This document shows, piece after piece, positions 2,179-62,641 of a DNA stretch of 64,000 bases (its first letter is position 1; each line of letters opens with the position of its first letter). This DNA is from Trypanosoma brucei. Lineage: Eukaryota. The notes under the pieces were generated by a model, which was given only the letters and a program-made list of their open reading frames with translations, was not told where the DNA came from and did not search any database. Position numbers and translations under genes: made by a program. The DNA is taken from contig CM000208.1 of the NCBI GenBank assembly GCA_000002445.1, positions 3,584,001 to 3,648,000 on the forward strand, written 5' to 3'.

Positions 2179-3442
2179 TTTACCACAAGCGTCTATTGCA
2201 TGCGACTGTCTGGTTGCTCTCCTTGTGCCGTCGCTCTCCTGCAAACGCGTACCAAGGGAAAAATTAAACCAGTAAACCCCTTTCATGTACGCGTTTGCGT
2301 AGGCAAGAAAGGATAGTATTAGGGCGGTTTTCTCTCTCTCTCTCTCTTGCTTTTGATATATATATAGATATATATATGTACGTGCATGTGCCGTTCACAT
2401 ATAGCTCTCTGTGCTACCTGTTCAAGTCACTCCTGCTTTTTCCCTTCTTCTTCTTCTTCTTAACTTTCGTGATTTCCCCCCCCCCTAGTGTGTGGTTGTT
2501 CCGACCGGGCGCGCCCTAGTAAACTACTGTCTTTATGTTGGCATTTGGGTCGGGAAGGAGGGTAGAGTCGTTGCACTGAAATCACTACATCAATGACAGA
2601 CGCGTACTGTGCGCTGTTTATTTACATTATTATTATTATTTTTTGTGGGATGTAGGCAACATTTAGCAGGAGTACAACCAGGGAGAATAGGGGTTATTTA
2701 TAAGTTAGAGGTCTGTGGTATTGATGGAACAGTCAGCACTGCCCGTCACGGAAAAGTGTTTGTGTGTGTTAATAAAGTGTCGTGTAATTTTGGGAGATGA
2801 GCAGTGCGGTTCTCACGTTGCTGTGATACAACAACAACAACAACAACAACTATCGTTTCCCCTCTCCCCTCTCTCTCTGTATGTGCGCGACCATGCACTA
2901 ACTGAAGCAGTGTTCGGTGCCTATGAATTGTGCGTTGCGTCTTCCATTTGTTTTGGTCTTGCACATTTTGTCATGTGGATAGCGAGTTGTGTAATGGCAT
3001 TTCTTTTTCTTTCTTTTTTCTCTCTCTCTCTCTCTCTGTCTCTGTCTTTATCGTACTTTTCTTTCATAGGCGTTGGGTGCCGTGTGATTGATCTTTATTT
3101 ACTTTCAGTGTCCAATTTTTTGACCATTGTTTTCTTTTCGTCACTACTCTTTACTTACCCCCCTTTACTAATTTTTGCATTGTCACTAAGGGAGAAAAGG
3201 AGGAGCAAAACAAAAACAAAAGGAAAAGCCACTGAGAATAGGAGGTAATAATATATAACAGAGAGGAAGAACGGTTGAGGAGCAATTCTTGAAGGTTATC
3301 CGTACACTCACAAGCTTCAGCGTATCATAGATTAGGGTGTTTATACACATATTTTTGTTGCTGCCGTTGACTGTTTCTTTATTTGCATTTAATTAAATCT
3401 CAAACAAAAAGAAAAAAATCGTACACTCACAACTACTTTGCC

Positions 3443-5410
3443 ATGACGGATGCCCCAAGGGTCACTATTGCGGCCGATGGCGAGGAAACGTCGAATGGTC
3501 CAACGGCGGGTGCCGGGTTGAGGGAGCATCCACCAAAGATACTCTTCAACGTTTGCAGAAGGGAGTTATTTCACCCAAACAAGGGGTACAAGCAGTTGAC
3601 GCGGCGGCTCCGGCAGTTTTGTACGGTAGATGTTAACAAGGAGGATATCAGCATGGATCGTCTCGCGCCGTATGATATTGTTGTCTTCGGCTCACCCCAA
3701 GAGAGGTTGAGTACGGAGGATCTTTCGGTTATTCGGGAATACGTTCAGCAGGGCGGTTCTGTTATTATGCTCTTCGGAGATGGCCACGGGGGCCGCTACT
3801 CATACCTCAACGGCACGTTGGAGGAGTGGACTGGTATTACACTCAATGAGGATTGCGTGGTTCGTACGGTCATGAACAAGTACCTTCACCCTAAGGAGGT
3901 TTGTGTTGTCAATGGTATAACAAACCGGGCTATCAACAAAGCGGCAGGTAAAAATGTTCCTGGAGTCACCGGCTACCAGGGCTACCGCACGGGTTTTGCC
4001 ATGGGCGGCACCGCCCCGTTTGGAAACCGCGGCGCCCCAACGACGCTCAACCGCACTGCTACGGCTGGTGCTCTCGGCAACGCGGCAACGACGGTCGCAG
4101 CAATGGCTATGCAGCAACAACTAGTGGACGAGGCTGCAGCGGAGGCTCCAACTAACTTAACTTTTGTCTACCCGCACGGTTTGAGTTTCAATGTCAACCG
4201 TTCCGCAGTGCCAATTCTTAGCAGTGGTTTCATGGCGTACCCACTTAACCGTCCCATTGCCGTTGTATGGGAAAATAGTGATGAGGCGGAGCACAATGGG
4301 CGAAGGAAGCGAGGCAAACTGCTCCTCGTTGGTACCGGTCTCCTTCTTGAGGACTCTTGGCTTGGAAAAGAAGAAAATGAGCTGTTATCTACTGTTCTCT
4401 TTGACTATATGAACCATCATATTAAATTAAACCAAATCGATGCTGATGAGCCCGATATAACGGACTACCATCACGTACCTGATATTGCATCCCTTTCGGA
4501 GCGGCTGCGTGTTGCTGTCGAGCAGCAGGAGGAACTCCCACGTGATTTCACTAAATTATTCCAAATCGAGACATTTAAACTTGATACAGATATGATTCCA
4601 GAGGTTGTTGAGGCGTATGAGAAACTTAACGTGAAGCAGGAGCCTCTGACACTTATCCCCCCGGAATTCTTAACACCTTTGCCACCCGTCAAACCTGCTG
4701 TCTTTGAACCAACACATCGCGACCCTATGCAGCCGGCTTTGGATCTTTTCGACCTGGACGAAGAGTTTGCCCCTGATAAAGTGCGGTTGAGCCAGTTGAC
4801 CAACAAATGTAAGGCAGAGGATGTTCACTTTTACATTCTTCAGGCGTCGGAGATCCTTGGTGTCACGAAGAAATTACGGAGTCCACGAAACCGCGACCCT
4901 CGTGCACTTTTAGACCACGTGTTCCGTCATGTGATGCAGTATAAGATGAGTACAGCAGGCCCGAGGAATTCATCAGCCAGTGGGTTAGATGGGATGAACG
5001 CGGATACGAATGCTGCGGCTGCGGCTGCGGCTGGAAGTATGATGAGAGTCATTCGGGTGCTAACCAATGAGAATGGAAATAAGGATGCAACACCCTTCGA
5101 TAACAACGTCCCGTGGATGCTGGAAATCCGGGCGGACTTTGGTAGCGGTGACATTACAGGAAAACTGACACTACAGGAGTCGTCCGACCAATTCCCCGCC
5201 CAGGAAGCCCTCCTTGAAGGAACCATCAGGCCCCCTGGTGAGAGGGAATACCCAATGGAGTACGGCACGGCGCTGCGTGGTGCGGCGGGTGAGCAGGTAT
5301 TCTTTGTGTTCCTTGCTATACTTCAGGGAAATTCACTGCGCGGTGTATGTGAAGTAGCAGGAGGTGTTAACAATTCGCGCCATTTCGTCTATGAAATTGA
5401 GGAGCTTTGA
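3443..5410 (+). CDS. IFT52: Intraflagellar transport protein IFT52 (IFT-B core, GIFT domain)
   Basis: The translation aligns along its length with metazoan IFT52. Matching blocks include KILFNVCRRELF…GYKQLTRRLR, GGSVIMLFGDGHG, VVRTVMNKYLHPKEV, LTFVYPHG, PLNRPIAVVWEN, HIKLNQIDADEPDITDY, IPRDFTKLF, LNVKQEPLTLIPPEF, and LDLFDLDEEF…KVRLSQLTNKC. Start is placed at the MTDAPRV ATG (3443); the ORF is open from 3383. Confidence 0.85.
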   Translation: MTDAPRVTIAADGEETSNGPTAGAGLREHPPKILFNVCRRELFHPNKGYKQLTRRLRQFCTVDVNKEDISMDRLAPYDIVVFGSPQERLSTEDLSVIREYVQQGGSVIMLFGDGHGGRYSYLNGTLEEWTGITLNEDCVVRTVMNKYLHPKEVCVVNGITNRAINKAAGKNVPGVTGYQGYRTGFAMGGTAPFGNRGAPTTLNRTATAGALGNAATTVAAMAMQQQLVDEAAAEAPTNLTFVYPHGLSFNVNRSAVPILSSGFMAYPLNRPIAVVWENSDEAEHNGRRKRGKLLLVGTGLLLEDSWLGKEENELLSTVLFDYMNHHIKLNQIDADEPDITDYHHVPDIASLSERLRVAVEQQEELPRDFTKLFQIETFKLDTDMIPEVVEAYEKLNVKQEPLTLIPPEFLTPLPPVKPAVFEPTHRDPMQPALDLFDLDEEFAPDKVRLSQLTNKCKAEDVHFYILQASEILGVTKKLRSPRNRDPRALLDHVFRHVMQYKMSTAGPRNSSASGLDGMNADTNAAAAAAAGSMMRVIRVLTNENGNKDATPFDNNVPWMLEIRADFGSGDITGKLTLQESSDQFPAQEALLEGTIRPPGEREYPMEYGTALRGAAGEQVFFVFLAILQGNSLRGVCEVAGGVNNSRHFVYEIEEL

Positions 5411-7516: not shown

Positions 7517-9865
7517 ATGCGGTTGAATATTACGATTCCCAATGAGCACCACGATGATGCCTGCACTTGCGTTGCGGTGTCGTTGACGGGCGATGTGCTA
7601 AGCGCAGGTGATGATTTCGTCTTACGGCGCTGGAGCCCTAACGGGGAGCCGATGGGTAAAGTAAAGGAATTTGATAGCTGCATCACGTACATTGCGTGGG
7701 TGCCGCTACAAGGCGGACGCAAAGGTCGCAGTGCCAATACCGGATCTGTAGAGGGGAAGGGAAATTACCTTGTGGCTTGCGCTGATGGAACAATCTCATT
7801 TATGAATACGTCTTCTGACCGTGTGGAACGTACCATCGACGCGCACACTGGCACGATAACAGGTGTTGTGTACTCTGGAGATACCTCTTCTATCATTTCT
7901 TCTGGTGAGGATGGGTGTGTTAAGGTTTGGTCACAGGCTGGTATCCCTCGCACAACTCTCGTCTCGGCGGGGAGGTGTGTCTATGGCATTTGCTGGGGTT
8001 CGGAGACAACAGAGCTCGGTGGCGATTGTGTGCTTTACTGTGTTGGTAGCGAGGTGACCATCAAACCTCTCAATCCAGCGGTGAAGAAACAGTTGAAGTG
8101 GAAGGCTCACAATGGGATTGTTTTGGCCGCAGACTGGTCACTTATGACAGGGTTCATTGTCACAGGTGGCGAAGACGGGACCTACAAGGTATGGGATCCG
8201 TACGGCCGCAGTATTTACGTTTCCGCTGCAGGTGGACATCCATGTACTGCTGTGAAGTTTTCAGCTGATGGTGAAATGTTTGCGGTGGGGTCCTTTATGA
8301 ACATTCGGGTATGTGACAAGACGGGGTGGAGTCACACATATGAACGACTTTCTGAGGGAAGTGCGCTTTCACTGCAGTGGACCGCTGATGGAACGCAGGT
8401 GGTTATGGGGTGTGGGAGTGGTTCTGTGTGTACTGCCCAGCTTATAGACCGAAAGATGTACTGGAGCCACTTCTGCGTCACTTTGGTAGACGGAAATAGA
8501 CTGCTTGTTCAGGATGTACTCACAGACGCGGTCGAGGAAGTAGAACAACGTGACAAGGTCATCAAAGTAGAAGTGGGTTACGGATACCTTGTTTCATGTA
8601 CCACAACGCAATGCGCATGCTATCCTATTGACCGCCTTTCTGCACCAGTGCAATTTGATCTCCGTGATGTCGTCATTACGCTAATCCTTGGTCAGAAACA
8701 CTTGTTGCTGGCAGATTGCAACTCTGGAATGCAGATTTACTCGTATGAGGGTCGTCTCATTTGCACCCTTCGTCTCCAATCGTTCCTGAGACCAGAGATT
8801 ATGGCGCCCGATCTTGTCTCCCTTTCGCCGGACACAGTTGCAATTCGAAATCCCGCTGATCCAAGAAAAATCCTTTTCTTTGACACCACTAATGGGAAAG
8901 CGATGGAAGATGCAACCATTACTCATCATCTTGACGTCATTTCGCTGGAGTTGTCGCAGCACGGCGAACTGAGTGAGCGCAAGATTGCCTTCGTGGATCG
9001 GAACCGCGACATGCACTTTGGAGCAGTGCATCGCAAAGTTGGAGCTGCGCAAAAAATCAGCACCATGACTTCCAGTTTAGCGTGGCACGGTGAGCATGAA
9101 ATCCTCGTTGCGATTGCGGATGGACGACTCACGACGTGGTACTATCCAACCATTCTGTTTTCCGACAGGGGTCTGCTGCCCACGACAAAGACTGTGAGAG
9201 ATGATGGTGGAGACGAGTTTTCGCGGAATGATCGAATTGTTTCGTTTTCTGGCACCCGAGTAAGCATTCGACGGGGAGTGGATGGCGCCCTCTTAACATT
9301 TAACACCTCACCGTATCCCTCCTTCATTTTCGAGCACGTGGCACGACACGACTTTTCGAGCGCCACGCGCCTCGCGCGCTTCTTGGATGAGAAACCTCTA
9401 TGGGGCATTTTGGCCGGCCTCGCCCTTCGGCACGGTGACCTGAATGTGGTGGAAATTGCATATGGTGCCCTCTTTGAACTTGACAAGGTACGCTATATTC
9501 GGTACCTAAAGAGCATTCCCACACCGGAAGGTCGGCAAGCGGAACTAGCTTTGTTTCAGCGCCGCTCAGCTGAGGCGGAGCGCATTTTACTTCAGGCTGG
9601 TCTCATATACCGCTGTATTGATATGCATACCCGATTGTTCAACTGGGAGCGCGCTTTGGAAGTCGCAGCGGAGCGGAAGACTCATGTAGACACCGTGCTT
9701 GCGAGGCGGCGGAGGTATCTCGATGCTGTAAAGAGGACAGAGGATATTCCTCTCTTTAAGGAGCTCGGTGCGTCTGTCCGTGTAGATTGGGAAACGGTTG
9801 TTGAGAAGGTGAGACAGGAGGAAGAGAAGGAAGCTCAGCGGCCTGGTGCCAAGCCCTACCAGTAG
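7517..9865 (+). CDS. IFT80: Intraflagellar transport protein IFT80 (WD40 beta-propellers plus C-terminal alpha-solenoid)
   Basis: Near-colinear similarity to human IFT80. MRLNITIP matches MRLKISLL, KVWSQAGIPRTTL matches KIWSKTGMLRSTL, and LKWKAHNGIVLAADW, YKVWDPYGR, FAVGSF…RVCDKTGWS, YSYEGR, IAFVDRNRD, WERALEVAAERKTHVDTVLARRRRYL all have counterparts. 782 aa. Confidence 0.9.
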   Translation: MRLNITIPNEHHDDACTCVAVSLTGDVLSAGDDFVLRRWSPNGEPMGKVKEFDSCITYIAWVPLQGGRKGRSANTGSVEGKGNYLVACADGTISFMNTSSDRVERTIDAHTGTITGVVYSGDTSSIISSGEDGCVKVWSQAGIPRTTLVSAGRCVYGICWGSETTELGGDCVLYCVGSEVTIKPLNPAVKKQLKWKAHNGIVLAADWSLMTGFIVTGGEDGTYKVWDPYGRSIYVSAAGGHPCTAVKFSADGEMFAVGSFMNIRVCDKTGWSHTYERLSEGSALSLQWTADGTQVVMGCGSGSVCTAQLIDRKMYWSHFCVTLVDGNRLLVQDVLTDAVEEVEQRDKVIKVEVGYGYLVSCTTTQCACYPIDRLSAPVQFDLRDVVITLILGQKHLLLADCNSGMQIYSYEGRLICTLRLQSFLRPEIMAPDLVSLSPDTVAIRNPADPRKILFFDTTNGKAMEDATITHHLDVISLELSQHGELSERKIAFVDRNRDMHFGAVHRKVGAAQKISTMTSSLAWHGEHEILVAIADGRLTTWYYPTILFSDRGLLPTTKTVRDDGGDEFSRNDRIVSFSGTRVSIRRGVDGALLTFNTSPYPSFIFEHVARHDFSSATRLARFLDEKPLWGILAGLALRHGDLNVVEIAYGALFELDKVRYIRYLKSIPTPEGRQAELALFQRRSAEAERILLQAGLIYRCIDMHTRLFNWERALEVAAERKTHVDTVLARRRRYLDAVKRTEDIPLFKELGASVRVDWETVVEKVRQEEEKEAQRPGAKPYQ

Positions 9866-10649: not shown

Positions 10650-12032
10650 GTGTGGAGAGCGAGAACAGCCGGAAATCCAGTGAAGCCAAAGGAACATCTG
10701 CTTATATACTCAGGGACGCGAGAGAGCAAAAGGGTTGGTAGAGGATATTTGGACGGAGCAGCAATGATAGGCGGTCAGCACAAGAAGGAACGCATCAGTG
10801 AGCGGCTCCAAAACTGCCAGAATCAGCCAAAGAACCGCTGCTACCTTCCGGGCACGCAGTTGCTGACAGGCGGATATAGTACCAAAACATTACAGGGTAA
10901 CTGGAGTGAGGAACGGGCGGATGCCGGCTACTACGACGGAAAGGCAATTGTTCCAACACATCTCTCCAAAATTTGGACGACGGAGTACACAGTCATGACA
11001 AACCATGCAATGAAGAGGGCTCAGGAGCAGGCGCCCGTCTTTGATCAGGCAACGTTGGTTGATATTGTGGACCGCAATCACCGTGCATATCCCACTCATC
11101 AGCCGCACCTCGACCCTCAACTTCCAAAATTGAAGGAAGAGGCGTTTAAAACAACAATGAGGACCTCGTTTAACCACCCGCAGGAAGTTAAGCTGCGTGA
11201 GGAGGCGTATGTCCGACCAGTTATCGGAAACACACCTGCCGCCCAGGCCAGGGCAATCATAATGCGCTTTCGGCGGCAGCTGCTGATTTCAATGGAAGGA
11301 CAGTCCGCTTTTCCGGGGAACGTGCTCCGGCAGGTGCGCCTCGCGCTGGAGAGGAATGATGTCGTCGGCAACGGAGTGCTCAACGTTGAGGAGACATTTC
11401 GCGGCTTCACTGAGGCTGGTGTAGAGACGAGTATACCGGAGTGTGTTGCTCTTGTTCGCGGACTTGACATGAAGGGTGATAACATGCTCTCGATTCGTAA
11501 GGTCATGGATGAAATGCGTGGGGAGGAACGGGATCGCCGGTACAGTATTATTGAGGGTGTGTATGAGTTGCTGAAGAAGCTGTGCAGTAATGGGGTTGTG
11601 CGGCTACACCACCTCGTCGATCTGATTGATGTCGACTCCATGGAGTCGGTGTTAAACGGAACTGTGTCTTCTGCTGACGCTCTCCGCGCGTTTACCACCC
11701 AGTGGGATCTGCCTTTGGAGGCACACATCAGCTTTGAAACGTTCCACACCTTTTTTAGAGATTCTTCGTTTGAGCTGAAAACCGATCAGGAATTCGAGAT
11801 CCTCATGCGCAACGTGTGGCACCTTAGTGGAGGTAATGGAAAGAATGTAAACACATCATGCCGGAGATTAAATGTGGTGCATAAGGATGGACGTGCCAGC
11901 GTACAGGAAGTTAAGGATGATCTAGATATCAAAGATGATGACCCGAATTTGATGGAGCGTATTTTGGCCAACCTGGCGACGCAGGGAATAAAGGATGTTT
12001 CCTCACTGACCATCATCCCGAAACGCCGATGA
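10650..12032 (+). CDS. Conserved hypothetical protein with three degenerate EF-hand-like segments (calcyphosine-like); true start may be the ATG at 10764
   Basis: Long + strand ORF preceded by a pyrimidine tract. Candidate EF-hand loops are RNDVVGNGVLNVEETF, LDMKGDNMLSIRKVMDEM and IDVDSMESVLNGTVSSADALRAF. No family could be assigned by eye. Confidence 0.6.
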   Translation: MWRARTAGNPVKPKEHLLIYSGTRESKRVGRGYLDGAAMIGGQHKKERISERLQNCQNQPKNRCYLPGTQLLTGGYSTKTLQGNWSEERADAGYYDGKAIVPTHLSKIWTTEYTVMTNHAMKRAQEQAPVFDQATLVDIVDRNHRAYPTHQPHLDPQLPKLKEEAFKTTMRTSFNHPQEVKLREEAYVRPVIGNTPAAQARAIIMRFRRQLLISMEGQSAFPGNVLRQVRLALERNDVVGNGVLNVEETFRGFTEAGVETSIPECVALVRGLDMKGDNMLSIRKVMDEMRGEERDRRYSIIEGVYELLKKLCSNGVVRLHHLVDLIDVDSMESVLNGTVSSADALRAFTTQWDLPLEAHISFETFHTFFRDSSFELKTDQEFEILMRNVWHLSGGNGKNVNTSCRRLNVVHKDGRASVQEVKDDLDIKDDDPNLMERILANLATQGIKDVSSLTIIPKRR

Positions 12033-23300: not shown

Positions 23301-24556
23301 GCAAAAGAGTAGCAGAGGTGATTAATTTCTCCTACTTGGGTTCCATTTTATTACCATTATTAATTTAGGAACAACTAAATATTAACGAAATAAAGGAAGA
23401 AAACAAAAAAGAGAACGAAAAAAAAGAAAAAGAAAGAAAGAAGATAAATAAAGGGGACGTGGGAGAGCAGAAGAAAAAAAAAGGAAAAGCAAAAGGAAAA
23501 GAAGCTAGAAAAGTAATGGTGCCCATCACATGATGGCAAAAAGGGAAGTGTGTACGTGCCAATGTGGAGGTGAGGGAAGTGAACTGATCCTTTACTTTTG
23601 TCGCGCAGTTGTTATTATTGTAAGGGTTGACTATCATTATTTTTATTGGTGTTATTGTTACTATTATCATTTCAACGAGTAAAGTGAACGATCAGCAAGT
23701 GAATAAGCACGAGCAAGTAACCATTAATAATTATATTGCATACAGTTGTACAATTATGTGTGTAAATGTACCTGTGTGTACGCGTTTTTTTTCCCCCTTT
23801 ATGCTTGTATGTTCGAATCCGGGGATTTAAGTTGTTGTTTTTGTTGTTGTTGTTGGGGTTTTCAAATGTTGTGGGGGATTTCTTCTTCACTCCTCTTCTT
23901 CTTTTTTTTTCTACTTTTACGTTTGGAAGCTCGGCGATACAGAACGCAGAACTTTTCCTTTTTTTTTTTGGTTTAATGCTTATTATTGGTACTGCTGCTG
24001 CTGTTGTCGCTGTTGTTGTTCATTCTAGTCAACATCCTCTCTCAATCGGCCCTTTCCCGTCCTTTCCATGTTATTTTCATTATTTCCACCGCAGTCGCCA
24101 CCATCGTGTTTTCGATTCCCCATCCCTCTTTCTCTCTTTCTTTCCTTTCATTTTTTTTGTTATTATTACTGTTTTCATTGTTATTGTCTCTGTTGCTGGC
24201 CCTTATTAATCGCAATTGTTACTCTTCTTTTCACCTCCATCCCCCTCTTTTTGTGTGTTGTGTGTTTGTATGTGTTTGGCTGTTGTAATTTGTTTGTTTG
24301 TTCTTTTTTCACCTCCCTCCTTCCAACCCCGCATCTTATATTTCGGGTGTCGGGACTGCAACTTCTTGAAAATACCTTTTTTTTTTAATTTTTTACGTTT
24401 GTCGTCGTTCTTTTGCCTCCCTTTTTTTTTTCCTCACTTCGGTGATACTTCCTCCCTTCCTTCCCTTTCTTTTTCCCTTTCTTTTTTGTTTTTGTATGTG
24501 TCTTATATCCCACTTTTTTTCTTTTTTGAGCAGCAAAATAAAAAAAGAAACACATA

Positions 24557-24557
24557 A

Positions 24558-24600
<43 letters not shown>

Positions 24601-24601
24601 A
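24557..24601 (+). repeat. (CA)n-(TA)n compound microsatellite
   Basis: cacacacacacacacacatatatatatatatatatatatata. Confidence 0.9.
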
Positions 24602-26347
24602 TGATAATAATAACAACGGAAACGATGATGGTGATAATATGTATAGGTGTGGATGTATATGAGGATGTATGCGTACATATATATATATATATATATATGC
24701 ACGGGGGGTTCTGAAAAGGATATAAAAAAAAACGTAGAGGCGTCATAATTTGAGTTTACTTTTTTCTGTTTTTTGAAAGGGTTTCGTCTTATTGTTTCGT
24801 ACTTTTTAAAATATCATGGTAATATGGGTAAGGAGGAAGTTTTTTTTTTTGTTCAAAAATTAACATTATGTCCGACGGTGTGTGGTTTGTGGTGCGATTG
24901 TTGTCTGTTTCGTCCGCGGTGTGCGATTTGGGGTTTGAGGGAAGCAAAAAAAGAAAAGATTTGAAATAAAGGAGGGTGTAATTTCCCACTATGGTGACGT
25001 TATTGTTGTGGGTTTTATCAGATGATTGTTTATTATTACCATTATTAGTATTACTATTACTACTACTTTCCACTGTTTCGCTTTTCTTTTTTTTCCTTTT
25101 TCCTTTTTTTTAAAAATTCTATTCCCCTCCCTTGCATCAGTTTCGATGATTAAACACTTACGTTTTGATCACAAATTTTGTGTGAAGCTTCCTCTCTTTG
25201 ACTTTAGTTTTTTTTTGTTTTTGGCGCTCCCATTTGATTTGATCTCTCTTTTTAAGTTTCGGTTTCCCACTCTGTCACCTTCTCCCCTCCCTTTAAATCC
25301 TCACTTTAGTCTTTTGTTGTATTCGGGTATCCATGTTGCGCTACGCCCAGCTGTTTGGAATATTACTTCGGAAGATGAAAAGTTCGGTTTATTTATTTAT
25401 TTATTATTTTTTTTTACGTTCTTTCTTTCTTTCTTCGACATGTTTGTTTTTTCCTATTCTCGAAATCAAAGGCATCACCAACACCACCACCACCAGCAGA
25501 ATTAAGTGAACACATCCGCGAGTTACTGCCATGTGTTAATCCCTTTGCCTTTCTACCCTTCGATGATTTTAAAAAAAAAATTTCCCTTTCGTTTCATGTT
25601 TTTCATCTATATTTTCTTATTCATCCCTTTCTTTCTTTCTTTCTTTTTTCTTTCTTTTTTTCATCCCTTTACATATATAAATAAATAAATATATATATAT
25701 ATATATATATATTTGAGATGTCTTCTTCCCTCGTATCCTCTGTTGCCCTCATTTTACGCGTCCAGAAACTTCCATCATGAGGTGTGACTGCTTTCTTTCT
25801 CCTTTTTGGTGTTAATATGTCTTCAATTCCCTTATAACTTATTGTAATGTTAATTTACCATTCAAAAGGGTTGAAAGATAGAGGGAATGTGTTTTGTTTC
25901 TGTGATATCCTGCTTTAAATTTTTGTCTTTTAATATCTTATTAAGCTTTCTACTCTCTCTCTTTTTCTTTTTTTTCTTTTTGTCCCCCTCCTTTAAAGTT
26001 TTTTCTCGCATATTTTCTCTTGTCCCGTCATCTTTTTGTGCTGTGGTTGTTGGGTGCCGCACATTTTTATGCATACCTCGTTGATGCGGTGATGAAATGC
26101 TGACTTTTTTTTTTTAAAAAAAAGAATCTATCGCGAAGGAGGCTCGATATGTTTGTTGGTTCATCTGTGTGTAAACACATAAATATGTCTTTTTATGCAT
26201 GATTGCCATCAATTTGTTCGTTTCTTTGTTTGCTCGGTTTGTTTTCGTTACTTTTTGTTGTTCCTCATCAACCCGTGTTCCCTCCTTCCGTGAAGGTGGT
26301 TTTAATCTGTTTGTGAATCCGTTTTGTTTCTGTGTGTTTGTGTGTCT

Positions 26348-32800: not shown

Positions 32801-33496
32801 ATGGTGGTCATACATAGTGGACTTGTAACTCCCGTATTGGAAATTATGTCACTAGTTAAGCCGTTACCTTTTGATGTGGATGTGTTGTTGGATGAACATC
32901 CCGATATGACAGTTTATCATCGCCCTCCATTGCGGAGCCGTGGTAGTGGAAGTAAATATATTTGCAATCATCATCCTGTTGAATTGCTTTCTTATGAAGT
33001 GTACTTGTGTGATACGGAAGATGAACCAGTTGTCGATTTTGAAGTGGATAATCAAATTGTCGTACGATATCAACTTAACCCGTATTGTGCTGCTTCAGAG
33101 TTTCCATTTCCTCGTGTGTTTGGAAATACAATCTACCGTAACCAAAGACCTTACCTCCGTCCTGCGTATGTGGAAGTTGCACATGGCTCTGGCGGTTGTT
33201 GTTTCAATGGTAGCGGATCATCATATGGCATTAATGTTTGTGTGGCTCCCACTGATATTTTTGCTGGTTTCCCTCGCTCCAATAATGGTGATGATGCTGT
33301 TATTTACTCTACGGTACCCCACATCAGGAAACTCCTACAGCGGCCCTTTTCCCCCTTTATGGAATGTGGTCCCTTAATTGCGGATGATGTTTTCTTTCAT
33401 TGGGATACCCTTGGTTTGCTTAGTTTGACTGATACGTGTGATTTGGGCATGTTCACAATTGAGGGTGTGTGTGGTGTATCCTCACATATTATGTAA
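32801..33496 (+). CDS. Tandem-array gene copy 1: Cys-rich hypothetical protein (231 aa)
   Basis: Intact ORF preserved in all three units. This copy carries the divergent mid-cassette ASEFPFPRVFGNTIYRNQRP. Confidence 0.75.
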   Translation: MVVIHSGLVTPVLEIMSLVKPLPFDVDVLLDEHPDMTVYHRPPLRSRGSGSKYICNHHPVELLSYEVYLCDTEDEPVVDFEVDNQIVVRYQLNPYCAASEFPFPRVFGNTIYRNQRPYLRPAYVEVAHGSGGCCFNGSGSSYGINVCVAPTDIFAGFPRSNNGDDAVIYSTVPHIRKLLQRPFSPFMECGPLIADDVFFHWDTLGLLSLTDTCDLGMFTIEGVCGVSSHIM

Positions 33497-33999
33497 TTTG
33501 CACTGAAATGCGTCATTACTTAATATGTGAAGGGTGCTATTGTTATTTTATTCCATATATTATTATATCACATGAGTCTCCCGCTACAATCACGTGGCAT
33601 TGTGCTGTGTGTCATCGGGTAGTTTAATATATTTATATATATATATATATTCTTTTTTTCTCCTTCACATAATTATTGTGGACGGTAGTTAATAATGCAG
33701 TATTTTTAATTGATTAGTGTCCTGGGGTTCTTCATCGTATTTGTTGATATGTTTGCTTGTTTGTTTCTATTACTTACATAACTGTTATATATATATATTA
33801 AAATTTTTTCTTACCGTTGTCACTCTTTCATTTTCTTTTCTGCAACCGATTGTTATCATACTTCCTTTGTCTAACTACATCACTAATTGCCACACTCTCG
33901 TACTTTCATCTGTATTGTTTCTCCATTTGCTCTTTCCTTAATTTAGCGCAAACGTCACACACTGTGTTTTGAGAAACTTCTACACTTTGTGAAATTACA

Positions 34000-34692
34000 A
34001 TGGTGGTCATACATAGTGGACTTGTAACTCCCGTATTGGAAATTATGTCACTAGTTAAGCCGTTACCTTTTGATGTGGATGTGTTGTTGGATGAACATCC
34101 CGATATGACAGTTTATCATCGCCCTCCATTGCAGAGCCGTGGTAGTGGAAGTAAATATATTTGCAATCATCATCCTGTTGAATTGCTTTCTTATGAAGTG
34201 TACTTGTGTGATACGGAAGATGAACCAGTTGTCGATTTTGAAGTGAGTAACCGAATTGTCGTACGATATCAACTTAACCCGTATTGTGCTGCTCAACTTT
34301 CACACCTTCGTGGGTTTGAGCCTCTCGTATATCCCTACGAGAGCCGTTACCTCCGTCCTGCGTATGTGGAAGTTGCACATGGCTCTGGCGGTTGTTGTTT
34401 CAATGGTAGCGGATCATCATATGGCATTAATGTTTGTGTGGCTCCCACTGATATTTTTGCTGGTTTCCCTCGCTCCAATAATGGTGATGATGCTGTTATT
34501 TACTCTACGGTACCCCACATCAGGAAACTCCTACAGCGGCCCTTTTCCCCCTTTATGGAATGTGGTCCCTTAATTGCGGATGATGTTTTTGTAAGGTGGG
34601 GAAGTAGCGGTTTGCTTAGTTTGACTGATACGTGTGATTTGGGCATGTTCACAATTGAGGGTGTGTGTGGTGTATCCTCACATGTTATGTAA
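34000..34692 (+). CDS. Tandem-array gene copy 2 (230 aa)
   Basis: Same ORF as copy 1, with mid-cassette AQLSHLRGFEPLVYPYESR and C-terminal variant VFVRWGSSG. Confidence 0.75.
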   Translation: MVVIHSGLVTPVLEIMSLVKPLPFDVDVLLDEHPDMTVYHRPPLQSRGSGSKYICNHHPVELLSYEVYLCDTEDEPVVDFEVSNRIVVRYQLNPYCAAQLSHLRGFEPLVYPYESRYLRPAYVEVAHGSGGCCFNGSGSSYGINVCVAPTDIFAGFPRSNNGDDAVIYSTVPHIRKLLQRPFSPFMECGPLIADDVFVRWGSSGLLSLTDTCDLGMFTIEGVCGVSSHVM

Positions 34693-35207
34693 TTTGCACT
34701 GAAATGCGTCATTACTTAATATGTGAAGGGTGCTATTGTTATTTTATTCCCTTTATTATTATATCACATGAGTCTCCCGCTACAATCACGTGGCATTGTG
34801 CTGTGTGTCATCGGGTAGTTTAATATATTTATATATACATATATATATATTCTTTTTTTCTCCTTCACATAATTATTGTGGACGGTAGTTAATAATGCAG
34901 TATTTTTAATTGATTAGTGTCCTGGGGTTCTTCATCGTATTTGTTGATATGTTTGCTTGTTTGTTTCTATTACTTACATAACTGTTATATATATATATAT
35001 ATATATTAAAATTTTTTCTTACCGTTGTCACTCTTTCATTTTCTTTTCTGCAACCGATTGTTATCATACTTCCTTTGTCTAACTACATCACTAATTGCCA
35101 CACTCTCGTACTTTCATCTGTATTGTTTCTCCATTTGCTCTTTCCTTAAGTTAACGCAAACGTCACACACTGTGTTTTGAGAAACTTCTACACTTTGTGA
35201 AATTACA

Positions 35208-35900
35208 ATGGTGGTCATACATAGTGGACTTGTAACTCCCGTATTGGAAATTATGTCACTAGTTAAGCCGTTACCTTTTGATGTGGATGTGTTGTTGGAT
35301 GAACATCCCGATATGACAGTTTATCATCGCCCTCCATTGCAGAGCCGTGGTAGTGGAAGTAAATATATTTGCAATCATCATCCTGTTGAATTGCTTTCTT
35401 ATGAAGTGTACCTGTGTGATACGGAAGATGAACCAGTTGTCGATTTTGAAGTGAATAACCGAATTGTCGTACGATATCAACTTAACCCGTATTGTGCTGC
35501 TCAACTTTCACACCTTCGTGGGTTTGAGCCTCTCGTATATCCCTACGAGAGCCGTTACCTCCGTCCTGCGTATGTGGAAGTTGCACATGGCTCTGGCGGT
35601 TGTTGTTTCAATGGTAGCGGATCATCATATGGCATTAATGTTTGTGTGGCTCCCACTGATATTTTTGCTGGTTTCCCTCGCTCCAATAATGGTGATGATG
35701 CTGTTATTTACTCTACGGTACCCCACATCAGGAAACTCCTACAGCGGCCCTTTTCCCCCTTTATGGAATGTGGTCCCTTAATTGCGGATGATGTTTTCTT
35801 TCATTGGGATACCCTTGGTTTGCTTAGTTTGACTGATACGTGTGATTTGGGCATGTTCACAATTGAGGGTGTGTGTGGTGTATCCTCACATATTATGTAA
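35208..35900 (+). CDS. Tandem-array gene copy 3 (230 aa)
   Basis: Mid-cassette as in copy 2, C-terminal patch VFFHWDTLG as in copy 1. Confidence 0.75.
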   Translation: MVVIHSGLVTPVLEIMSLVKPLPFDVDVLLDEHPDMTVYHRPPLQSRGSGSKYICNHHPVELLSYEVYLCDTEDEPVVDFEVNNRIVVRYQLNPYCAAQLSHLRGFEPLVYPYESRYLRPAYVEVAHGSGGCCFNGSGSSYGINVCVAPTDIFAGFPRSNNGDDAVIYSTVPHIRKLLQRPFSPFMECGPLIADDVFFHWDTLGLLSLTDTCDLGMFTIEGVCGVSSHIM

Positions 35901-37296: not shown

Positions 37297-38064
37297 ATGG
37301 CGTCAAAGGGTTGTTTCATTGCCGTTCTTATAGCACGTACGCATGATCATGTCCCTTTGTGTAGTTTTACCGATGAAAACTACGCCAATTGGAATCAGAT
37401 CAGGCAACAGGAGCAGCGTATTCTTGAGCGAATGGAGTCACCGGCGTCGGTACCAGATTCAGCAGGGACGAGAGGAAGTTACTACCAGAGCTTTGACCAT
37501 AAGGACTGTATTTACTTTGCATTTCAGGATGCGGGGACGGGGTTGACGATTATCACCGTTTTAAACAAACTTCTTTTGCGCAATTCCAGTGACGTTACGT
37601 CGACTAACCATCTTGCGTGTAGTCTGTTAGACATGATCTTCTCTGAGTTTACGCAGGCTTACTCCACATCCGAGATTTCAGCCAGGACAGTTCGTCCCTT
37701 TCAGTTTATAAAATTTGAATCCACTCTAGAAAAACTCATACACCGCGTGCAACGCGAACGACAAAACGATGTTGTTAGCGATTCGCACGGTGGACAGCGA
37801 CGTCAGGTTAATACGCAGTACGATGCAATTAAACAGGAGCTAACAGACGTTCACTTCGTTATGCGCAAGAACTTGGAAGACCTTATGGTGCGTGGGGAGA
37901 AACTTGAGACAATGAATCAGTTTAGCGCCCAGCTGGTGGATGAAAGCTCTCGGTTCTACAAGAAGACGGCTCGCATGAACAGGATGCGTTTGTTAAAACT
38001 GTACGGCCCTCCTGCTGTAGTGATTAGCATTCTAGCTCTCTTCTTCTACCTCTACCTGTTCTAA
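37297..38064 (+). CDS. SEC22: Longin-domain R-SNARE, Sec22-like
   Basis: N-terminal longin fold (CFIAVLIART…) and RPFQFIKFESTLEKLI matching Sec22 RPYSFIEFDTFIQK. The SNARE heptads carry a central Arg (DVHFVMRKNLEDLMVRGEKLETM), followed by a C-terminal TM helix AVVISILALFFYLYLF. Confidence 0.85.
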   Translation: MASKGCFIAVLIARTHDHVPLCSFTDENYANWNQIRQQEQRILERMESPASVPDSAGTRGSYYQSFDHKDCIYFAFQDAGTGLTIITVLNKLLLRNSSDVTSTNHLACSLLDMIFSEFTQAYSTSEISARTVRPFQFIKFESTLEKLIHRVQRERQNDVVSDSHGGQRRQVNTQYDAIKQELTDVHFVMRKNLEDLMVRGEKLETMNQFSAQLVDESSRFYKKTARMNRMRLLKLYGPPAVVISILALFFYLYLF

Positions 38065-50917: not shown

Positions 50918-51648
50918 GTCCTATTCAGCCAGTTCAGTTTCAAACACTCTGCTTGACCCCCGCGTCCTGCTTTGGCAGTGCAGCACATTAACGGAAGTCT
51001 ATATTATTCCGGGTATGGAGATGCATACACGTGGGTTTATTATGACGGTTTACTTACGTACCGCGTGAGGGTGTGCGGGACCGTACTGAACTGGCCCTCC
51101 TCGTCTCGGCGGTTGTTAAATTGTTTACTGACCCTCATCACCGGTTTATGCCGGCCTTTGCTCGCTCTCACTAGAGATTTTAATACTGTGTTCCTCCCTG
51201 AGTTCGGATCCCTTTTACCTACCTGTTTTTCTCACTCTTTTTTTATATTGATGAATGCAAACTGAGCTAGTGTGAGTGGCTTCACTCAAATAGAAAAAGG
51301 GAGGGAGGGGAGCGTGCATCACTTGTAGCACTTCTGACGACCCCCGCCTTCGGGCTTTCCCTCTCATTCTCATTCTGGACAGTGGTTGAATAGGGTCCAG
51401 GTAAAGAAATAAAGACAAAGGACTTTAAAAGGCAAAAGCGGGTGACAGAGGACCAGCACACATCATTTCCGCTACCGGTACCGTCCGTTGCATTTTCTTT
51501 GTTTTCTTGCTATTATACTTGATAATATTGCACCTCCGGGGGGTGGCCTTTTGCTAATTACCACGAGTATTTCGTGGGAAGGTGTGCGGTTAGGAGGGCA
51601 TTTTGCTAACCGTACCGTTTGTGTGTCAGGATAGTGAATTAGGGTGGA

Positions 51649-52368
51649 ATGGCAGGCGGATCTACCTCCCCGGCCGTACGGGCACAGCAGATGATGAAAA
51701 CTGCGGACTTGGTGAACAAGTTCGTCATATCAACAGCACAGTTCTTGAATAGGTTTGCTGCGTATTGTGAAAGTAAGCTGCTTGAAACAAACCGGTCACT
51801 TCAGCGGTTGGAGACTCTTACACTGTTATTGGAAGCCAAAATCGCGAGCGTGGACGATGAGCTTAAGGAGACCCAACCGCAGACTGTTGAAGGTCAGACT
51901 ACCGTGAAGGCCCTAGGCGACAATGTGGCAAGGCTGATGATACCCGACCGCCAGGTTCCTCCACCCATGCCCGGGCTTTCGCCGGAGGGCGGCCAGCGGA
52001 GGTTACCACCACCACCGCCTTCGCATCAAAACCGGAAGGGTCCTCCCCCACCCCCGGGTTCAGCGGCACCAGCCGTCAAAGCCCCTCCTCCCCCTCCGGT
52101 GCCGCTTCCACCCCTGATGCCCGGGCCTCCACCACCGGGTGCGCTGCCGGTGCAACCCCCACCGATGCCACTAATGGGTGGCGTGCCAATGAGGTCCCAC
52201 CCACGACTTGCCGGTTATTATCAGATGCTGGCCTTGAGGGTTCCGGCGGAGGTCATAAAGGAGAAAATGCGATCAGATGGGTATCAACCCGAGTGGTTGG
52301 ACACCCCTGATGCCGTGTCTCCATCAGCACTGCCAAGTAGAAAGAGGGACATGTACGATTCCGATTAG
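51649..52368 (+). CDS. WASH complex subunit 3 (CCDC53/WASHC3)-like protein with central polyproline region
   Basis: The N-terminus FVISTAQFLNRFAAYCESKLLETNRSLQRLETLTLLLEAKIASVDDEL matches CCDC53 FVVHTVQFLNRFSTVCEEKLADLSLRIQQIETTLNILDAKLSSIPGLDD. The C-terminus YYQMLALRVPAEVIKEKMRSDGYQPEWLDTPDAVSP matches CCDC53 YLKMVQVGVPVMAIRNKMISEGLDPDLLERPDAPVPD. The middle is PPPPP-rich. Confidence 0.7.
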   Translation: MAGGSTSPAVRAQQMMKTADLVNKFVISTAQFLNRFAAYCESKLLETNRSLQRLETLTLLLEAKIASVDDELKETQPQTVEGQTTVKALGDNVARLMIPDRQVPPPMPGLSPEGGQRRLPPPPPSHQNRKGPPPPPGSAAPAVKAPPPPPVPLPPLMPGPPPPGALPVQPPPMPLMGGVPMRSHPRLAGYYQMLALRVPAEVIKEKMRSDGYQPEWLDTPDAVSPSALPSRKRDMYDSD

Positions 52369-52838: not shown

Positions 52839-53702
52839 GTGCGCGGAGCTTTGTTTAAAACAAGTTCATCTACTGCGAAACATAACACAATGCGACGGGG
52901 AAGTGGATTTGTGCACCTCAACACACCGGCGGCAATCTCCTACTCTCCAGGGCAACAAGTCTCTCTATCGGATCTCCGACAAAAGCGCCGCCGTGAGGAA
53001 TGTGTCGTATTACCCCCTATTATGACCGTGTGGCGGAGCGCCTTTAGTCAATACACGAAGATGTGGGGTTTAACTAAGTTTGCAGGCGATATCGAAGCTG
53101 AACGGGAAGGTGAGGGACCAATTTTACCACCCATAAGGGAGGAAACAGTGGTCAAGTCAACCACTCACAGTTTCAAAGGGAAAAGTACGACCGTAGCCGC
53201 TGCCGTTGCTACCCCACCAGGGGAAAAAGGTATCGAAATCGTGTCACACCACAAGCTTTGTGGTAAGCAGAGGTTTGTTTATCCTGATCATGATGGTGTG
53301 CTATCATCGGGAATAGTACCGAAGGTTGTGATATCAAAAGAGGAAGAGGAGGAGATGGAAGCGAACAAAAAATACTATATTTCCCCACAGGAAATGACTG
53401 AAGAGGAGCGGAATGCTTTCGAGGAATTGGATGCAATGTGGAAGAGCTACGCCCGTGGCCGTAGCGAACAAGGGGCAAGACACAGGGCATTTGCTGGCAC
53501 CGTTACACCCGGGGATGCCATGACAGAAGTTGAAGAAGAAACGGGGAACAACCGTGGAAATGCACGACGAAGGCTAGAGTCTCATACACCAAGGCAGCAC
53601 CCACAGGAATCTGCTGCGGAGGGTAATTCGGTAGCACATAATACTGAAGAGGCGCTAGATGATGCACTGCGGTTAATTGATGAACTGTTAGAGTTCAACT
53701 AA
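52839..53702 (+). CDS. Hypothetical protein (287 aa; alternative start at MRRGSGF, 52890)
   Basis: + strand ORF with acidic C-terminal half; no domain recognised. Confidence 0.55.
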   Translation: MRGALFKTSSSTAKHNTMRRGSGFVHLNTPAAISYSPGQQVSLSDLRQKRRREECVVLPPIMTVWRSAFSQYTKMWGLTKFAGDIEAEREGEGPILPPIREETVVKSTTHSFKGKSTTVAAAVATPPGEKGIEIVSHHKLCGKQRFVYPDHDGVLSSGIVPKVVISKEEEEEMEANKKYYISPQEMTEEERNAFEELDAMWKSYARGRSEQGARHRAFAGTVTPGDAMTEVEEETGNNRGNARRRLESHTPRQHPQESAAEGNSVAHNTEEALDDALRLIDELLEFN

Positions 53703-61183: not shown

Positions 61184-62641
61184 ATGGCAAGTTCTACAGC
61201 AACCGCCGACGATGAATTGGTACCATACCATGCATTCCACAATAATGATGAAAAAATGTTTCCCATGCTAACCCTTTACTGTCCACCAGTGCCACCGTCA
61301 ATGCTTGTGGGCCGCTACAAACCTCCGCAGAAACCCCCATACAAATACCTGAACGACATATCAACTGCAGGGCTCCGTGAACACATGGCTCAAGCTACAA
61401 TTGCACGCATGTGGCGGGGTCTTCTAACCCGTCGCCGTTTAAATAATGAGGCGGTTCACCGCTACGTGCGTCAGGTATTCGCTACAAAGATCCAATGCTG
61501 GTGGCGGTTCCTCATCGCTGGGTGGAGGCGGGACAAGTTGTCCAAGATAAAACAACAGTGGGTTGAAGAGCAGAAGAAAAACTTTTTGGAGAAGCGCTTG
61601 TCCGGTCAAGCGGCCATGAGAACATGGCAGCGAAGGCGTTTTGAGGACGCCGTTATGAAAATACAGCGTGTATTCCGTTGGTACCTCAGTCGACGAGACC
61701 TTTTATTCGCTGATGAGGAAGCCAAGTCGAAGGTTCTTCCCTTCCCGGTGGATTACAAACCTAAGGTGTATTTCCCCTGGCGCCGACGTCGGGAGGAAGC
61801 GGTCCAAAAGGTAGGGGAGAAGTTTGAGACTGCAGAGGACTCCGAAGGGCTTACAGGCGGATTCCAATTCCGCAAAACACCAAAGTACCCCAGTCCACCA
61901 ACGATTGAAGAGGTCAAGGAAATTAACGATGCGATGCGCCTTCGTGAAGCGAGGCTCGCGGAGATTCTCGATCAACCGGAGGTACATGAACGCAGACAGT
62001 GGAAGATTGATGGTCTTCGGGAAGATGACTTTGACCACAATGCGGGTATGATTCAGCGTTTTGTTAAGTACAGATGGGACGACGCGAAAAGGACAACGCT
62101 GAAGCTCACGTCGGAATACTTTGAAAAGAAGGCTCGCATCATTCAGCGCTCCTTCCATTTGTATAAGACGTTCTGCAGAATGCGGCAAAGCCGTAGGCTC
62201 AATGAAAAGGCTGCAGCGCGGCTGAACACCGGCTATGCGCGAGAGAGGTTGTCCGAGCTGGAAAAGGAGCTGGCGTGGAAGAAGATTCTCCTTAATAATG
62301 CCGCCCTGACGATTCAGAAATGCTGGGCGTTCTACAAGTACAAGTTGACTGCGCATGATCCCTTCTACGCTGCCGCGAATGAGGGAGAAAAGCAAGAAGT
62401 GGATGTTGAGGTTACCGTGCCCACAGCCCCACCATACCGGCTGATTGATGATCATATCCAACGTGAAGCTCAGCTCCGCAACGCTGCTTGCTCAAGGATG
62501 GCTAGGGAAATGGAAGAAATGGTACAGGCGAGGAAAAAGACATGCGGCCAACGATTCAAACCGAAAAAACTGATTATCGCTAGTGAGGAGATGGTTTATT
62601 GCCGCCGGTGCAGTGACAGCGAGGAGAACCCAGAGATGTAA
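61184..62641 (+). CDS. IQ calmodulin-binding-motif protein (485 aa)
   Basis: At least four IQ-like motifs are present: TIARMWRGLLTRRR, ATKIQCWWRFLIAGWRR, VMKIQRVFRWYLSRR, ARIIQRSFHLYKTFCRMRQSRR, and ALTIQKCWAFYKYK. Confidence 0.7.
   Translation: MASSTATADDELVPYHAFHNNDEKMFPMLTLYCPPVPPSMLVGRYKPPQKPPYKYLNDISTAGLREHMAQATIARMWRGLLTRRRLNNEAVHRYVRQVFATKIQCWWRFLIAGWRRDKLSKIKQQWVEEQKKNFLEKRLSGQAAMRTWQRRRFEDAVMKIQRVFRWYLSRRDLLFADEEAKSKVLPFPVDYKPKVYFPWRRRREEAVQKVGEKFETAEDSEGLTGGFQFRKTPKYPSPPTIEEVKEINDAMRLREARLAEILDQPEVHERRQWKIDGLREDDFDHNAGMIQRFVKYRWDDAKRTTLKLTSEYFEKKARIIQRSFHLYKTFCRMRQSRRLNEKAAARLNTGYARERLSELEKELAWKKILLNNAALTIQKCWAFYKYKLTAHDPFYAAANEGEKQEVDVEVTVPTAPPYRLIDDHIQREAQLRNAACSRMAREMEEMVQARKKTCGQRFKPKKLIIASEEMVYCRRCSDSEENPEM

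Follow-up and report, generated by a model that had tools for sequence, protein, structure and literature searches.

A CCDC53/WASHC3 gene and a putative WASH complex in Trypanosoma brucei

The WASH regulatory complex is made up of WASH1, FAM21, SWIP, strumpellin, and CCDC53, the last being the smallest of the five subunits. A small open reading frame (ORF) at positions 51649..52368 of the T. brucei DNA analyzed here, a stretch of 64,000 nucleotides that we refer to as the window, was originally predicted to encode a CCDC53-like protein. This raises the question of whether the ORF is a genuine CCDC53 gene and, if so, whether its product has a WASH complex to work in.

The CCDC53 gene and its surroundings

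The ORF listing of the window placed the reading frame on the plus strand at exactly 51649..52368, as in the original prediction. It runs from an ATG to a TAG stop codon, which is included in these coordinates, and encodes 239 amino acids; the ATG is the earliest possible start codon downstream of an in-frame stop. By exact look-up, the translation is identical to XP_827993.1/EAN78881.1/Q387Z1_TRYB2 of T. brucei, which is deposited under the name "hypothetical protein, conserved" from chromosome 10 of Trypanosoma brucei brucei TREU927. Its 90% cluster also contains a near-identical protein of T. equiperdum, which bears the name "coiled-coil domain-containing protein (DUF2360)." The integrity of the gene is thus directly supported and, together with the full-profile family match described below, its sequence identifies 51649..52368 as a genuine, complete gene for CCDC53/WASHC3, the small WASH-complex subunit. 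Scanning the intergenic region upstream for sequence patterns, we detected a polypyrimidine tract (51493-51508) and a first AG at 51566-51567, 82 nt upstream of the ATG. By the usual rule of mRNA processing in trypanosomatids, we take this pair (51493..51567, plus strand) to be the candidate trans-splicing signal of the CCDC53 gene.

Of ten window ORFs looked up, nine match TREU927 proteins exactly. All ORFs of at least 180 amino acids that had matches lie on the plus strand of the window, which fits the expectation for a trypanosomatid polycistronic unit. IFT52 (3383-5410, plus strand; GIFT, central, and C-terminal domains) lies close to IFT80 (7517-9865, plus strand), and these two genes, along with a weak CFAP68-like ORF (10650-12032) and a paraflagellar-rod/IQ protein (61184-62641), make the window rich in flagellar genes. 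An AT-rich stretch at 24001..26000 (GC, 0.34; negative GC and AT skew) contains no ORF of at least 180 amino acids and is set in coding-dense surroundings of roughly 50% GC. A tandem array at 32801..35900 (plus strand) comprises three ORFs of about 230 amino acids each (32801-33496, 34000-34692, and 35208-35900) that are 90-92% identical to one another and matched no Pfam family; the first copy is set apart from the second and third by a single block of ~19 residues, which looks like a compensated frameshift. A membrane-trafficking gene, encoding a longin/synaptobrevin R-SNARE (37297..38064, plus strand; PF00957, E = 9e-13; weak Longin match), lies 13.6 kb upstream of CCDC53 in the same polycistron, an arrangement that is probably coincidental. 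Directly downstream of CCDC53, the ORF at 52839..53702 (plus strand) encodes CBP30 (PF19041, E = 1.9e-131), a subunit of the trypanosomatid nuclear cap-binding complex. This ORF is listed from a GTG, and its true ATG is probably further in.

Family membership and protein architecture

We scanned the whole CCDC53 protein against Pfam. It matched PF10152 (CCDC53, WASH complex subunit; formerly DUF2360) with an E value of 1.1e-37 and 130.2 bits, the gathering cut-off of the family being 24.6 bits. The match forms one stretch in which residues 22-218 align to profile positions 1-147 of 147, and no Pfam family other than PF10152 was matched at E values up to 10. The profile search that had been proposed as the check on the original prediction was therefore strongly positive. 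As a control for a proline-driven artefact, the protein was also scanned in three separate pieces. Residues 1-101 alone scored 72.9 bits (E = 5e-20; profile positions 1-62) and residues 176-239 alone scored 47.2 bits (E = 4e-12; profile positions 108-147), whereas the proline-rich linker scanned alone had no Pfam match. Because the two terminal blocks are each significant by themselves and the linker is not, a proline artefact is excluded. With both blocks past the threshold independently, the CCDC53-like character that had been ascribed to the N-terminal helical region and the C-terminal ~35 residues was confirmed. The accompanying claim that the PPPPP-rich linker is itself CCDC53-like stood only in part: homologues do share a proline-rich, PPPPPG-type linker, but the segment is of low complexity and gives no profile signal alone.

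We searched 5.8 billion clustered proteins and obtained 43 homologues, every one of which (43/43) carries a precomputed PF10152 domain. Identity to the T. brucei protein was 68% for T. congolense, 48-52% for T. theileri, T. cruzi (48%), T. rangeli, and T. melophagium, and 35-38% for Leishmania (35-41% for Leishmania and Leptomonas together). T. grayi was also among the species with a homologue, and the T. melophagium homologue bears the name "WASH complex subunit 3." Named matches beyond the kinetoplastids, all of them WASH complex subunit CCDC53/3, came from Acrasis kona, Planoprotostelium fungivorum, and the sponge Halichondria. Besides occurring across the trypanosomatids, CCDC53 orthologues are thus present, according to the protein search, in heteroloboseans, amoebozoans, and sponges. 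That T. brucei possesses the CCDC53 subunit, as originally predicted, is well supported by the family assignment of all homologues and by the WASHC3/CCDC53 names of those outside the kinetoplastids.

An AlphaFold2 model, built with a 22-sequence homologue alignment, divides the protein into three parts. The N-terminal part (residues 8-74; 51670..51870, plus strand) is predicted with high confidence (pLDDT, 90-98) as one long amphipathic helix that carries a QFLNRF motif and resembles the assembly helix of BRICK1/HSPC300. In the alignment, F32, L33, and N34 are invariant and Q31, R35, and F36 almost invariant, within the wider motif VNxFxxxxxQFLNRF. The linker (residues 75-179; 51871..52185, plus strand) is 33% proline with several PPPP(P) runs and is predicted to be disordered, without secondary structure (pLDDT, 47-66); its length and sequence differ among the orthologues. 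The C-terminal part (residues 180-225; 52186..52323, plus strand) is a conserved module with the sequence pattern HPRLxGYxxM..VP...K.KM..DG..PEWLDTPDA, modeled as a compact arrangement of three small helices (residues 188-195, 200-209, and 214-217; pLDDT, 89-95). The isolated module also folds when modeled by itself, with helices at 17-24, 29-39, and 43-46 in the numbering of the fragment. Identity to T. brucei CCDC53 ranges by region over 43-94% for the N block, 24-72% for the C block, and 16-62% for the linker. Conservation is thus highest in the assembly helix, which reaches 94% identity with T. congolense. Identity in the C-terminal module is 54-72% among the kinetoplastids versus 24-41% with nonkinetoplastid WASHC3, and its alignment motif, (H/D)PR(L/Y)xxY(F/Y)xM...VP....K.KM...G..P..L, is kept from kinetoplastids to a sponge.

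Compared with known CCDC53/WASHC3 proteins, the T. brucei protein matches the full-length profile and has the same succession of FLNRF assembly helix, disordered proline-rich linker, and PR..(Y/F)..M...VP....KM...G..P module; its gene is likewise single copy and co-occurs with WASH1 in related trypanosomes. It differs in having a longer linker than the aligned amoebozoan and other nonkinetoplastid homologues, and the linkers of Leishmania are much longer again and acidic or arginine rich in the 22-sequence alignment. Kinetoplastid CCDC53 proteins have HPRL and WLDTPDA where others have DPRY and IL.TPDA.

CCDC53 is held to be the WASH-complex counterpart of HSPC300/BRICK1, and some sequence homology between subunits of the WASH and WAVE complexes has been described (PMC3298513). 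In agreement with this view, the CCDC53 alignment profile searched against all PDB sequences matched human BRICK1 of the WAVE complex (3p8c_E, E = 9.7e-4) and Dictyostelium Brk1 (3pp5, E = 1.8e-3). Both matches cover the N-terminal helix, and an FLN.F motif is common to all. As a single sequence, the T. brucei protein matched BRICK1 at E = 0.24, and the proline tract drew spurious PDB matches (e.g., BTK and SS18). A Foldseek search of the full model against the PDB gave no meaningful match, and no WASHC3 structure was found among the PDB entries searched by sequence, family profile, and fold. These sequence comparisons point to BRICK1/HSPC300 as the expected distant relative of the CCDC53 family, with a homologous or analogous N-terminal helix and presumably the same role, that of a small helix in a three-helix bundle heading a nucleation-promoting factor (NPF) complex. 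The similarity is marginal, at E ~1e-3 with the profile. BRICK1 is also much shorter (~75 amino acids versus 239), lacks the linker and the C-terminal module, and belongs to the WAVE complex, which is absent from Euglenozoa.

WASH partners and alternative readings

The remaining ORFs of the 64-kb window encode no further WASH subunit. Kollmar et al. (2012; PMC3298513) reported that WASH is the sole WASP-family protein of Euglenozoa, which lack WAVE, and that Trypanosoma WASH is without a WH2 domain and retains the CA region. The reported lack of WH2 in the partner is a further difference from the known CCDC53/WASHC3 system. The supplement of that study (the WASH.fas alignment) contains a curated full-length T. 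brucei sequence, TbWASH. Degapped, it has 575 amino acids with an acidic C-terminal tail ending in W, and it matches Pfam PF11945 (WASH_WAHD) with an E value of 1.5e-30; a WAHD-containing WASH partner therefore exists in Trypanosoma. In a phmmer search, the WAHD region matched an orthologue with 75% identity in T. congolense and one with 63% identity, named WASH1, in T. melophagium, followed by metazoan WASHC1. According to the protein searches, T. congolense and T. melophagium thus encode both CCDC53 and WASH1.

Neither exact look-up nor the phmmer search with the WAHD region found a T. brucei WASH1 protein record in a collection of 15 billion sequences, so that the evidence for WASH1 in T. 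brucei is the sequence curated by Kollmar et al. Among named trypanosomes, the WASH1 search returned only T. congolense and T. melophagium; T. brucei, T. cruzi, T. theileri, T. rangeli, T. grayi, and others were returned for CCDC53. WASH1 may be unannotated or miscalled in many trypanosome genomes, perhaps owing to its long polyproline tracts; alternatively, the word-index search may have missed the records. Strumpellin has been reported in Leishmania (LmjF.27.1660, PF10266) and Trypanosoma (PMC11684767); a query concatenated from the human/Leishmania MEME motifs of that study returned only short unnamed PF10266 fragments. For SWIP and FAM21, our literature search yielded no trypanosome report. 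The reviews, dating up to 2025, speak only of a "weak" homologue of WASH-1, in Leishmania. The original prediction would have fallen had there been neither a profile match to CCDC53 nor any other WASH subunit in the genome; the data instead comprise the PF10152 match at E = 1.1e-37, TbWASH, and the reported strumpellin.

Three other readings of the ORF were weighed against a CCDC53 subunit that works in a WASH complex. Low-complexity tracts such as a linker that is one-third proline do draw spurious matches, BTK and SS18 among them, and a chance ORF or polyproline artefact might be suspected on that account. The linker alone has no Pfam match, however, and it is the two nonproline blocks that score 72.9 and 47.2 bits; in addition, orthologues are kept across the Trypanosomatida and beyond, and the folded elements are confidently predicted. 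This reading has next to no probability, and we excluded a chance ORF on the strength of the full-length PF10152 match, the 43 homologues, and the piecewise Pfam matches. No more credible is the idea that the protein is an orthologue of BRICK1/HSPC300, a WAVE/SCAR subunit, instead of CCDC53. The similarity of the N-terminal helix that favors it is weak (E = 0.24 for the single sequence and ~1e-3 for the profile), whereas the Pfam search up to an E value of 10 gave PF10152 alone, and BRICK1 chains of 73-75 amino acids consist of the helix only. The length of 239 amino acids, the CCDC53-specific C-terminal module, the Pfam result, and the absence of WAVE from Euglenozoa (PMC3298513) rule out BRICK1 identity.

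The most substantial alternative, although still an improbable one, accepts the protein as a true CCDC53 homologue and supposes that the WASH complex around it has degenerated, leaving an orphan or repurposed protein, perhaps a homo-oligomeric coiled-coil scaffold or a profilin-binding adaptor. BRICK1-type helices are known to form homotrimers, and Dictyostelium Brk1 (3pp5) is among the profile matches. Such a reading would also accommodate the missing T. brucei WASH1 record in the 15-billion-sequence collection, the reported lack of a WH2 domain in Trypanosoma WASH (PMC3298513), and the "weak" Leishmania homologue of the reviews. Against it, TbWASH is a full-length sequence that has both a strong WAHD domain and the acidic tail ending in W, and two related trypanosomes, T. 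congolense and T. melophagium, possess both CCDC53 and WASH1. Moreover, no part of CCDC53 is better conserved than the assembly helix (94% versus T. congolense), as would be expected if its partners had been retained.

Proposed function and significance

We consider it very probable that the T. brucei ORF encodes a CCDC53/WASHC3 orthologue working in a WASH complex along the lines proposed here, the assembly and endosomal role being attributed by homology. By analogy with known complexes, the helix of residues 8-74 would pack against N-terminal helices from WASH1 and a FAM21-like subunit to form a helical bundle, much as BRICK1/HSPC300 does in the WAVE complex together with WAVE and Abi. The bundle would dock onto a platform of SWIP and strumpellin and stabilize the complex, with the Arp2/3-activating C terminus of WASH held in check on endosomal membranes. 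The complex would in turn drive the formation of branched-actin patches, leading to cargo sorting and recycling. The proline-rich linker may serve as a flexible tether and is a plausible docking site for profilin-actin, and the C-terminal three-helix module is a further putative interaction surface. In Leishmania, endosomal sorting needs the poly-Pro binding of profilin (PMC10907219). Because Trypanosoma WASH reportedly lacks WH2 (PMC3298513), the complex may differ from a canonical NPF in its action. Our search of the full-text literature found no experimental or functional study of T. brucei CCDC53.

The assignment of the ORF to CCDC53 is right but ordinary, in that the protein is a member of a known family in the reference T. 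brucei proteome. Its sequence, the precomputed Pfam domain, and the names "DUF2360" or "WASH complex subunit 3" in related trypanosomes were already public, and kinetoplastids had been known to possess WASH since 2012 (Kollmar et al., PMC3298513). The suggestion that a WASH-type complex, or at least its CCDC53 subunit, is present in this lineage is supported by the PF10152 match, the WAHD domain of TbWASH, and the strumpellin report, but its novelty was overstated, as both were on record.

Trypanosomatid nucleation-promoting factors are still experimentally uncharacterized, and no WASP-family nucleation-promoting complex other than WASH is predicted in trypanosomes. For bloodstream T. brucei, endocytic recycling is a central element of immune evasion, and CCDC53, being small and well conserved, would be a convenient bait with which to purify the WASH complex of the parasite.
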